A stretch of 64,000 nucleotides of DNA from Angustibacter luteus (GCF_039541115.1 NZ_BAABFP010000002.1:992001-1056000), one strand, 5' to 3'. Shown: positions 23,651 through 26,520, numbered from the stretch's first letter. Notes: generated by a model from the letters alone, not told the origin. Numbers and translations are program-made.

Positions 23651-23902
23651 ATGCCGCGTTTCATGGACGTGCACACCATCGAGGGCGGGGTGTCGGCGGC
23701 TGACGTCGCCGGCGCCCACCAGGCGGACCTGGCCACCCAGGGCCCGCACGGCGTCAGCTACCTCAAGTACTGGGTCGACGAGCAGGCGGGCAAGATCTTC
23801 TGCCTGGTCGACGCCCCGGACGCCGAGGCCGCGAACACCGTTCACCGCGAGGCACACGGCCTCGTCGCCGACGAGATCTACCCCGTCAGCGAGCACGTGT
23901 GA
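23651..23902 (+). CDS. SCO4226/DUF4242-family (nickel-binding) small protein
   Basis: MPRFMDVH, AHQADL, YWVDE..GKIFCL, HREAHG; AAGGAG RBS. Confidence 0.88.
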   Translation: MPRFMDVHTIEGGVSAADVAGAHQADLATQGPHGVSYLKYWVDEQAGKIFCLVDAPDAEAANTVHREAHGLVADEIYPVSEHV

Positions 23903-24665
23903 CGTCGTCGGGGTCGGCGTCGCCGCTGGCCGTCCACTGGCCGATTCGGAAGACCACGAACTCGGCCGGTCGGACGGGCGCGACGCCGATCTCGACGACC
24001 AGGCGGCCGTTGTCCAGGTCGGCCTGCGTCATCGTGGTCCGGTCGCAGCGGACGAAGAACGCCTGGTCGGCCCGCTCGCCGAGCAGCCGACCGGACCGCC
24101 ACTGGTCCTGCAGGACGTCACCGACCGAGCGTCGGACCTGATCCCACAACCGGTCGTCGTTGGGCTCGAACACCGCCCACTGGGTGGCATCGTCGATCGA
24201 GTGCTCGAGGTAGGCGAGGTACCGCCGGAGGTTGACGTAGTGCCACTCGGGATCGGGCCGCCAGTGCGGGTCGTCAATGTCGTCCAGGTGCTCGAACGCG
24301 ACGACGTCCCCGACCTGTTCGGGATGGCGGGGGAACGCGACCTTCCCGGCCGCGACGCACCAGCGGGCCACCTCGACCCGCAGCCAACCGGCCTGCACCA
24401 TGGGGTCCAGGCCGGCGATCCGCAGGGCCTCGTCCCGCCCGACCGTGTAGACGCTCATGCCGCGCAACCGCTCGTCGCTCTGCTCGCGCATCGGCCCGTT
24501 CGCCACCGTGATGCCCCGCTCAGCCAGCGAGAAGCCGTACGCCAGGTGCTCGCGCTGCAGGTCGTCGAGCTCGTCGTCAGCCAGCTCGGGCGGGTCGTCC
24601 GCCCGGACCAGGAACACCACGGTCCGGACGTCGAACTCGGCGGGTACCCCCGGCGGTCGGTCCAC
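23886..24665 (-). CDS. YciI-like domain fused to a contractile tail sheath C-terminal domain
   Basis: N-term LQREHLAY...NGP...DPMVQAG (YciI-like); C-term WHYVNLRRY...QWAVFEPND..LW...FFVRCD...GVAPVRPAEFVVFRI (sheath); TATGTT -10 six nt before GTG 24665. Confidence 0.8.
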   Translation of the reverse strand: MDRPPGVPAEFDVRTVVFLVRADDPPELADDELDDLQREHLAYGFSLAERGITVANGPMREQSDERLRGMSVYTVGRDEALRIAGLDPMVQAGWLRVEVARWCVAAGKVAFPRHPEQVGDVVAFEHLDDIDDPHWRPDPEWHYVNLRRYLAYLEHSIDDATQWAVFEPNDDRLWDQVRRSVGDVLQDQWRSGRLLGERADQAFFVRCDRTTMTQADLDNGRLVVEIGVAPVRPAEFVVFRIGQWTASGDADPDDVTRAR

Positions 24666-24762
24666 GAGCCGAACATAGCCCCGTGACAGCGCCGGGGAAA
24701 CGGCATTGTCCCGACCGACCGGGCGCGCGAATACTGAGACCTCCCCGGAACCGGTAGGAACC

Positions 24763-26520
24763 ATGAGCCTCACCATCAGCCTGCTCGGCCGGCCGCACCT
24801 CACGCGCTCGGACGGTGACGCCTACCAGTTCCGGAGCCGCAAGAGCTGGGCGCTGCTGGCCTACCTGCTGCTCAGCCGGCGGCCGGCGCCGCGCGCCCAG
24901 CTCGCCGAGCTGCTGTTCGCCGAGGCGGACGACCCGGCCCGGGCCCTGCGGTGGAACCTGTCCGAGCTGCGGCGCGGCCTCGGCGAGGCGGCCACGCTCG
25001 AGGGGGACCCGCTGGTGCTGCGCCTGCCGGTGGGCACTGAGGTGGACGTCGACGTGCTCGCCCGCGGCAGCTGGGTGCAGGCCGTTGCGCTGGACGGCTT
25101 GGGCGAGGACCTGCTGGCCGGGATGTCGCTGCGGGGCGCGGCGGGGTTCGAGACCTGGCTGCTGGCCCAGCAGCGGCACGTGGCCGGTGCCAGCGTGGCG
25201 ATCCTGCACGAGGCGGCGCTGGGTTCGATGTCGCGCGGTGCCCCCGAGGCTGCCCTCGGGTACGCCGTCCGCGCGGTCGCCGCCGACCCGCTGGACGAGG
25301 ACAACCAGGCCCTGCTGATCCGGCTCTACCGCTTGGTCGGCGACGACGAGGCCGCGGCCCGCCAGCTCGAGCGCTGCACCGCCCTGCTGGAGCGCGAGCT
25401 CGGCACCTCCCCCGGGCCGGCGATCCTCGCCGCGGCCCGCGAGCGGCGGGCGGAGACGGTCGAGTCCGCCGACGAAACCACCATCGCTGCGTTCGTCGAG
25501 GCTGGGTCGGCCGCCGTCGCCGTCGGCGCGGTCGAAGCCGGGGTGCAGTCGCTGCGGACCGCGATCCGGCTCGCCGACGGCGCCGGGACGGACGCGCTGC
25601 GCACCTCCGCCCGGCTCACCCTGGGCGAGACGCTGATCCACGCGCTGCGCGGCCTTGACGAGGAGGGCCTCGCGGCCCTCTACGAGGCGGACGAGATCGC
25701 CGGCGGCTGCGGCGACCGCGGCGTGATGGCGAGGGCCCGGGCCGAGCTCGGGTACGTCGACTACCTGCGCGCGCACTACGACCGGGCCGAGCGCTGGCTC
25801 ACCGAGGCGATCGAGCTCAGCGAGCCGTCGTCCTCGACGCGCGCCGCCGCGACCACCTACCTCGGCCTGGTGGCCACGGACCGCTCGGACGACACCCGCG
25901 CCGCGGCGCTGCTGGGCGAGGCGATCACGCTGTCGCGCGCCGCGGGCGACCGGCGGCGCGAGGCGTACGGCCTGGCGATGCTGGGCCGGGTCGCCCTGCT
26001 CCGCGGCGACGTCCGGCTGGCCGCCGAGCAGCTCGACGCGTCGATCGCGCTGGCCGAGAGCGAGCACTGGCTCGCGTTCCTGCCGTGCCCGCAGGCGTTG
26101 CGGGGCGAGGTGCTCCTGATCGAGGGTGACGTGGACGGCGCCGACACCGTGCTGCAACAGGCGTTCGCACGGTCCTGCCAGCTGGCCGATCCCTGCTGGG
26201 AGGGGCTGTCCGCGCGAGCCCTGGCCCTGGTCGCCGACGCCCGCGGCAACGCCCGGGGCGCCTTCTCGCTGCTCGCCGACGCGCGGGTTCGGGCCGACCG
26301 GCTGCCGGACCGCTACACCTGGCTCGACGGCTACATCCTGGATGCGCAGTGCACGCTGGGGCTCAGGCACGGGCACCCGCAGACGCAGGAGTGGGTCGAC
26401 GCGTTGCGGGACCTGTCCTCGCGCACCGGTATGCGGGGTCTGGTGCTCCGTTCACTCGAGCACGGCGCGGCGCTCGGCCACGCGGACGACGCCGCCGCTC
26501 GTGCCCTGCTGGGTGACTGA
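24763..26520 (+). CDS. SARP/AfsR-type regulator (wHTH + BTAD + TPR-like region; no NTPase motif seen)
   Basis: ISLLGRP, SRKSWALLAYL, LRWNLSELRR, DPLDE, RELGTSP. Confidence 0.85.
   Translation: MSLTISLLGRPHLTRSDGDAYQFRSRKSWALLAYLLLSRRPAPRAQLAELLFAEADDPARALRWNLSELRRGLGEAATLEGDPLVLRLPVGTEVDVDVLARGSWVQAVALDGLGEDLLAGMSLRGAAGFETWLLAQQRHVAGASVAILHEAALGSMSRGAPEAALGYAVRAVAADPLDEDNQALLIRLYRLVGDDEAAARQLERCTALLERELGTSPGPAILAAARERRAETVESADETTIAAFVEAGSAAVAVGAVEAGVQSLRTAIRLADGAGTDALRTSARLTLGETLIHALRGLDEEGLAALYEADEIAGGCGDRGVMARARAELGYVDYLRAHYDRAERWLTEAIELSEPSSSTRAAATTYLGLVATDRSDDTRAAALLGEAITLSRAAGDRRREAYGLAMLGRVALLRGDVRLAAEQLDASIALAESEHWLAFLPCPQALRGEVLLIEGDVDGADTVLQQAFARSCQLADPCWEGLSARALALVADARGNARGAFSLLADARVRADRLPDRYTWLDGYILDAQCTLGLRHGHPQTQEWVDALRDLSSRTGMRGLVLRSLEHGAALGHADDAAARALLGD

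Follow-up and report, generated by a model that had tools for sequence, protein, structure and literature searches.

Contractile sheaths are held together by a “handshake” in which a C-terminal strand and an N-terminal arm are swapped between subunits, and a helix of the C-terminal region attaches to the tube. Among the solved structures, the C-terminal region of the protein described here resembles that of the contractile injection system (CIS) sheaths 9ezm, 8bky, and 8bl4 and, more distantly, those of Afp2-4, Pvc2-4, AlgoCIS, and the Anabaena CIS. The core sheath domain faces the tube and is made of an N-terminal and a C-terminal part (PMC9230969). The C-terminal half, which is the one kept by the orphan domains considered here, contacts the tube and links the subunits. 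The other family involved is that of the YciI-like proteins (PF03795), which includes HI0828, TftG, and ClcF, and in which no other member with a sheath domain was found.

Here we describe a gene of Angustibacter luteus that joins these two kinds of domain in one protein. It is located in a stretch of 64,000 nucleotides (NZ_BAABFP010000002.1:992001-1056000), called “the window” below, and the genome is referred to as G000. While CIS sheaths carry PF04984 and the N-terminal half of the core domain, the fusion protein has neither, and unlike CIS sheath genes its gene does not adjoin a tube, baseplate, or spike gene. From sequence comparison we read it as an intact, lineage-specific fusion and as a member of a rare CIS-derived family whose sheath domain would most likely be a docking or mimic module. 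This reading is a tentative one, its chances falling a little short of even. The features of the locus are collected in Table 1.

Table 1. Features of the fusion locus, in window positions.
Feature	Position	Strand	Basis or remark
SCO4226-like gene, convergent	23651..23902	(+)	PF14026; 85% DNA identity to the G003 counterpart
Fusion gene, 259 codons plus stop	23886..24665	(-)	Start GTG 24665; translation, Pfam, and codon signal
Acidic tail after GQWT (ASGDADPDDVTRAR), residues 246-259	23889..23930	(-)	Alignment with the tails of the stand-alone family
Sheath C-terminal domain, residues 138-245	23931..24254	(-)	PF17482, CIS sheath alignment, Foldseek
Junction/linker DDIDDPHWRP, residues 128-137	24255..24284	(-)	Alignment A1 and AF2
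YciI-like part, residues 1-127, complete YciI-type protein with native C-terminal tail	24285..24665	(-)	Pfam YCII, P0009 alignment, fold
-10-like hexamer TATGTT	24672..24677	(-)	6 nt upstream of the GTG; predicted leaderless arrangement
BTAD-domain regulator, divergent from the fusion gene	24763..26520	(+)	PF03704; present in G003

The fused gene and its two halves

The longest minus-strand frame around the gene spans 23886-24803 (305 aa), with its stop at 23886-23888. The initial annotation had described a single uninterrupted ORF joining a YciI-like domain to a sheath C-terminal domain, and this description holds: the frame is continuous and shows the native codon bias throughout, with a GC3 of 0.87-1.0 across all 30-codon windows, the junction included. 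Scanning of the alternative frames gave no family-type leader and no start for a separate sheath-C gene. In the Pfam scan that the annotation had called for, both domains pass their cut-offs. YCII (PF03795) does so narrowly, at residues 69-148 of the 305-aa frame (E 2.4e-5, 25.2 bits vs. 24), and Phage_sheath_1C (PF17482) covers residues 183-287 (E 2e-15, 57.1 bits vs. 26.9, model positions 2-101 of 104). The mapped sheath domain agrees with the stretch of about 23930-24254 that had been proposed for it, and all of the sheath motifs that had been quoted are present in the translation.

Within this frame, sequence features make a leaderless start at GTG 24665 plausible. TATGTT had already been taken for a leaderless -10 box. 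The exact spacing speaks for this, as TANNNT is rare in the window (72% G+C, 39 occurrences on both strands together) and precedes only 2 of 4016 ATG/GTG/TTG triplets at a distance of 6 nt, GTG 24665 being one of the two. A generic two-hexamer sigma-70 scan, on the other hand, found no promoter at the gene. In the alignment with P0009, the closest YciI homologue, this GTG falls on an internal Met. The database gene call, P0002 (292 aa), begins at an ATG further upstream, where it would run into the start codon of the divergently oriented regulator gene. This ATG was judged the less likely start.

The YciI-like part is 69% identical to the whole length of P0009 (142 aa, PF03795), whose end corresponds to residue 127. 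In the AF2 model (mean pLDDT 71), the protein is made of two separately folded halves with a low-confidence stretch between them, pLDDT being below 50 at residues 104-131 and 135-144. The strands and helices of the YciI half span residues 11-105, and its pLDDT is 61-89. Foldseek matches this half to ClcF (3znu), TftG (4lbp), HI0828 (1mwq), and 1s7i, with E 6e-3 to 2e-2, probability 0.99-1.00, and target-normalized TM values of 0.50-0.60. The N-terminal half is accordingly modeled as the ferredoxin-like alpha+beta fold of YciI, MLI, and TftG, so that its likeness to the YciI-like proteins lies in the Pfam match, the fold, and the identity to P0009. The NCBIfam YciI equivalog gives the fusion protein 13.8 bits, far below its cut-off of 108. 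The translation of the fusion protein has a histidine at residue 40, within REHLAY. YciI and HI0828 have a conserved histidine in their putative active site.

The core of the sheath half is modeled with a pLDDT of 87-94, and Foldseek matches this half to CIS sheaths (E 1e-7), with which it shares the same predicted secondary structure, three strands plus two long helices. The alignment of residues 137-249 with the solved CIS sheaths of Halogeometricum borinquense (9ezm, E 1e-38) and Streptomyces coelicolor (8bky and 8bl4, E 1e-37) covers the final ~110 residues of these proteins and reaches their C-terminal end, with identities of 54-56%. Metagenomic eCIS-type sheaths are 66-73% identical to the domain. 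The best phage sheaths, those of Streptomyces myophages, reach 39%, and only 12 of 50,697 phage records match. Since identity to solved CIS sheaths is so much higher than to any phage sheath, the domain is, by these comparisons, derived from CIS sheaths and not from phage sheaths. The fusion protein has no Pfam match to PF04984, its N-terminal half is of the predicted YciI fold, and the core domain needs both of its parts (PMC9230969). For these reasons, it would not form a functional contractile sheath and, judged by its composition, cannot serve as a subunit of any known type of sheath. Prediction of a complex of three copies of residues 130-259 gave a score of 0.18, with a mark of 0.42.

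The initial annotation had also called for a search for the same architecture elsewhere. Among the matches listed of the 9707 obtained from 1.84 billion representative proteins, with no length filter, none covers both halves; the best (185 bits) covers the sheath part only, and YciI-only proteins reach ~169 bits. A collection of 5.8 billion proteins gave 2698 matches (142-454 aa), and among the best 120 only the window's own record has both Pfam domains. The fusion is known from one assembly (one member, one contig), and to judge from these searches it looks unique to this genome. With a single assembly, it has to be asked whether sequencing or assembly created the junction in silico, out of separate YciI and stand-alone sheath-C genes or out of two regions with no relation to each other. 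No public run spans the junction: each of those screened contains at most 7% of the sampled words. From the four that were assembled, the contigs obtained all belong to relatives and cover the conserved SCO4226-like and sheath-C stretches, with none spanning 24233-24330. We nevertheless consider such an artefact highly improbable. The gene sits in the interior of a contig of ~1.3 Mb, one of the 11 that make up this 4.16-Mb genome, which is 100% complete by markers. Its flanks are collinear on both sides with those of a congener (G003), and the coding signal runs unbroken over the junction with no alternative-frame leader or start for a second gene.

Sheath-C domains are also found attached to other partners. 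Four GNAT-like fusions (P0047, P0052, P0094, and P0095) form one supported clade (98-99), P0120 joins His_biosynth to sheath-C, and P0294 joins HAD to it. P0200 and P0204 look like chimeras of sheath-C with fragments of ABC_tran or FeoB_C. As in the window's fusion, the unrelated N-terminal domain joins the DPEWKYV start of sheath-C directly, but the partners differ from YciI, and the GNAT part corresponds only to the C-terminal part of the Pfam model. Most of these chimeras are on metagenome contigs of 1-3 kb. Those with pieces of ABC_tran, FeoB_C, HAD, and His_biosynth show that a domain as conserved as this one does become joined to other sequences by accident or by mis-assembly.

Free-standing sheath end-domains and their distribution

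The best matches of the sheath half are small proteins of 135-170 aa that start with Met or Val and have a leader of their own and an acidic or Pro-rich tail. The stand-alone sheath C-domains that the initial annotation had suggested looking for in other genomes are thus found. The set comprises 32 sequences with several leader subtypes, sorted by upstream sequence, with five labels corrected by hand. The leader is typically MDEP..FV.E....R.IVG[RQ][VIL]P.R...[ST]DPxWKYV, and full sheaths have LNPEGINCFRFFEGRGFRLWGARTISSDPEWKYV at this position instead. In the window's protein, which is 259 aa long, alignment A1 places the 10-residue linker where the family has its leader, with the whole YciI part before it. 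The C-domain and the acidic tail after GQWT are alike in both, the window's tail (WTASGDADPDD..) being of the acidic type seen in the family, and the G003 copy stands in the same gene block. Many stand-alone proteins end with a Cys in the last 1-8 residues (..DDC, ..TTGC, ..APQC, ..PPCGQ, ..CDGDRPTG), a residue that is absent from full sheaths and from the window's protein.

Alignment A2 of the family comprises P0003-P0008, P0017, P0022, P0122-P0133, and others, with genomic copies in G003, G090, G052, and G072. The window's protein scores 225 bits against its profile over positions 26-148, and its sheath-C domain is 64-78% identical to the genomic stand-alone copies (77-78% to the G090 gene). 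Nearly all of the residues conserved in sheaths are kept, and an F to V and a K to H differ from columns that are invariant in A2. At most five columns tell the stand-alone set (32 sequences) apart from 170 sheath C-domains, the core of the domain being essentially unchanged. The Glu of GRLV.EIGVAP was considered as an orphan signature and rejected, because the solved CIS sheaths share it and the column scan omits the position. Automatic names given to the family are “phage tail sheath protein FI” and “Phage tail sheath C-terminal domain-containing protein,” and a full-text literature search found no account of sheath-C proteins that stand alone or are fused to another domain. A free-standing, CIS-derived family of sheath end-domains in sheath-less Actinomycetota and its fusion to YciI are apparently new, both domains being well known in themselves.

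To place these proteins within the order, 401 genomes were surveyed with a profile of nine stand-alone proteins: 67 match at E ≤1e-10 and 334 have no sheath-C match. Orphan forms are found in 5 of the 67, namely the window's genome, its congener G003, and three genomes of one other genus (G090, G052, and G072). The other inspected frames are full sheaths followed by tube genes; short frames in G362 and G374 (both at contig starts), G300, and G097 were left out of this inspection. A 153-aa frame in G030 was rejected as a stand-alone gene, being part of a frame-broken full sheath with a tube gene after it. In 185,579 species genomes, a strict leader DNA pattern, which misses variant leaders and fusions, hits four loci. 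One of these (L047) is Angustibacter sp. McL0619, at the coordinates of the G003 locus, and the others (L045, L046, and L048) are MAGs of uncultured Actinomycetota. On metagenome contigs, the pattern was found on two short contigs. The neighbors of the stand-alone genes vary across the five genomes and none is conserved, which means that the partner of the domain cannot be read from context.

Locus history and selection

The fusion gene is surrounded by ordinary chromosomal genes: MFS, TetR, hypothetical, DUF5995, methyltransferase, SCO4226-like, BTAD, second methyltransferase, DUF6529, and Rieske. The 3′ ends of the SCO4226-like and fusion genes overlap by 17 bp (23886-23902), and a terminator scan between the two found no hairpin. 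The order in the window is MFS, TetR, hypothetical, DUF5995, methyltransferase, SCO4226-like, sheath-C fused to YciI, and BTAD. In G003 it is hypothetical, DUF5995, sheath-C (145 aa, the same protein as P0125), SCO4226-like, and BTAD, with a group of MFS, TetR, and YciI genes ~9 kb from the sheath-C block. The flanks of the two genomes are collinear, with 72-85% DNA identity, and both sheath-C copies have the same orientation, with 82% DNA identity over their 3′ 172 bp. A search of G001, G002, G004, and G005, the four remaining genomes of the genus, did not find the BTAD gene, so the block is common to G000 and G003 only. Contigs of relatives from three metagenomic runs, which are of low likeness and come from other organisms, have the SCO4226-like gene joined directly to BTAD, as in G003. 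The G003 homologue of YciI (L014:1544-1855, minus strand) is 69% identical to the window's and lacks the first ~30 codons. It starts right after the stop of a dodecin-like ORF in the same frame, and is probably truncated.

Selection on the domain, for which a dN/dS check had been proposed, proves to be purifying. The 10 pairs of the five genomic sheath-C copies have dN/dS ratios (NG86) of 0.24-0.48, with 0.38 for G000-G003. Between the same two genomes, the ratio is 0.19 for the SCO4226-like gene and 0.24 for DUF5995. Pairs that include G000 are at 0.26-0.48, and the remaining pairs at 0.24-0.33. These ratios are upper estimates, because the strong GC3 bias depresses dS.

Comparison of the two loci leads us to infer that the orphan sheath-C gene is older than the G000/G003 split and that the fusion arose in the G000 lineage by rearrangement. 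The common ancestor of both would already have had the orphan gene, with the SCO4226-like and BTAD genes as its neighbors. In the G000 lineage, a local rearrangement would then have set a complete YciI-type gene directly upstream of it, with loss of both the orphan's leader and the YciI stop codon at fusion. The result would be one leaderless mRNA encoding a two-domain protein of ~28 kDa. The initial annotation had proposed either a domesticated domain or a recent accidental fusion. Both would apply, at different levels, with domestication first and fusion later: the existence of a stand-alone family, the copy in the syntenic block of G003, and the dN/dS ratios argue that domestication came first. 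Trees of the sheath-C domain neither confirm nor reject this order of events. They are poorly resolved, and neither a single orphan clade (p-AU 0.228) nor a grouping of the window with the G003 subclade (p-AU 0.294) is rejected. In free trees (109-column domain), the window's domain is found outside the G003 subclade, weakly grouped with other orphans and with the GNAT-like fusions. Its end branch is long (0.24-0.29, for a median of 0.05-0.11), as would be expected if constraint was relaxed or evolution sped up once the fusion had formed.

That long branch, together with the somewhat higher dN/dS of the G000 pairs, is also what would be expected if the fusion were a neutral by-product. The orphan's role would have been lost in this lineage, YciI would have been fused to it by accident, and the sheath part would be a functionless appendage whose decay is still pending. 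The uniqueness of the fusion, the loss of the family leader, a genome with no sheath or gp25 genes, the rearrangement of the locus relative to G003, and the existence of other, evidently accidental sheath-C chimeras all point the same way. We regard this as a serious rival, if on balance a rather unlikely one. The frame has no stop or frameshift and keeps its native codon bias throughout, nearly all family-invariant residues are retained apart from the F to V and K to H changes, dN/dS is well below 1, and the acidic tail typical of the family is still in place.

CIS parts in the genome and possible roles

The initial annotation had called the domain an orphan, with no CIS parts in the 64 kb, and had suggested looking for a CIS locus elsewhere in the genome. 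As far as the neighborhood is concerned this stands, since the genes at 16-33 kb in the window include no tube, baseplate, spike, or full sheath. It also stands for the sheath and gp25 genes of the whole genome, where there are no matches to PF04984 or PF04965 (gp25) and the only PF17482 match is the fusion gene. It needs qualification on one point, as an orphan tail-tube gene (PF06841, 115 bits) is present on contig C4 at ~86254-86860, plus strand (L050:9755-10360). This gene sits among the housekeeping genes dnaX, recR, gluconokinase, and GntP, and is followed by a conserved ORF of 118-130 aa without a Pfam family (L050:10364-10720). Directly after this pair comes a gene for a VapB-like antitoxin (L050:10737-11045, plus strand, PF23719, 167 bits). 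The pair recurs in G002 (L052) and G052 (L056), and no sheath was seen in any of the three genomes. In G052, it is preceded by a LuxR-type regulator and by an SCO4226-like gene, a kind of gene that also adjoins the orphan sheath domain in G000 and G003.

Orphan tube genes are recurrent in the order. Of the 334 genomes that lack a sheath-C match, 13 have PF06841 (G002, G007, G029, G031, G036, G159, G162, G175, G184, G194, G250, G278, and G343). Four genomes have the orphan domain but no sheath, and PF06841 is present in three of them (G000, G052, and G072), the fourth, G090, being 57% complete. This co-occurrence was a post hoc observation and concerns no more than two genera. Tube and domain are adjacent in no genome, and G002, G007, and G029 have orphan tubes without a sheath-C domain.

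Under domestication, the initial annotation had proposed either a decoy that would poison or cap sheath assembly or a scaffold that would polymerize the YciI enzyme. The core domain builds the sheath and contacts the tube (PMC9230969), and a protein with no more than the C-terminal half of it could in principle act as a dominant-negative cap or decoy. It would insert into the sheath of an invading myophage or CIS and, for want of an N-terminal arm, stop polymerization, thus serving in defense. The conservation of sheath-type residues and the presence of the domain in genomes without a sheath of their own are compatible with this, but other observations make it quite improbable. The low identity to phage sheaths and the few matching phage records given above argue against a phage target, and the closest relatives are CIS sheaths, whose assembly takes place in the producing cell and not in the target. 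The neighbors are ordinary metabolic and regulatory genes rather than defense islands, and no PADLOC-DB 2.0 family was found for the window's protein, P0003, P0125, P0047, or the C4 tube protein.

We therefore return to the docking or mimic module, a reading based on a domain that keeps the residues conserved in sheaths without the N-terminal half of the core and PF04984. Here the sheath-C module would dock onto, or mimic, a tube- or sheath-type partner without building a sheath. In the window's genome, it would carry the YciI domain to this partner, the orphan tube protein of contig C4 being the obvious candidate. A bolder version, which we regard as a long shot, is that orphan sheath end-domain and orphan tube together make up a minimal CIS-derived system that is no longer contractile, with YciI tethered to its scaffold. 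The tube-like protein, whose gene has a conserved 118-130 aa partner of its own, would then assemble into a ring or polymer in the cytoplasm, with the sheath end-domain as an adaptor dedicated to docking on it. If true, parts of an injection system would here have found a new use as a scaffold inside the cell.

The most conserved piece of sheaths thus persists under selection as a gene of its own, in bacteria with apparently no contractile machine. If the domain binds nothing, it shows for how long a constrained fold can persist after the machine is gone. If it has kept the ability to bind proteins of the tube or sheath type, nature would have supplied a ready-made inhibitor of contractile injection systems, or a tag for docking to them, and an example of how the parts of a machine can be recycled for another job.
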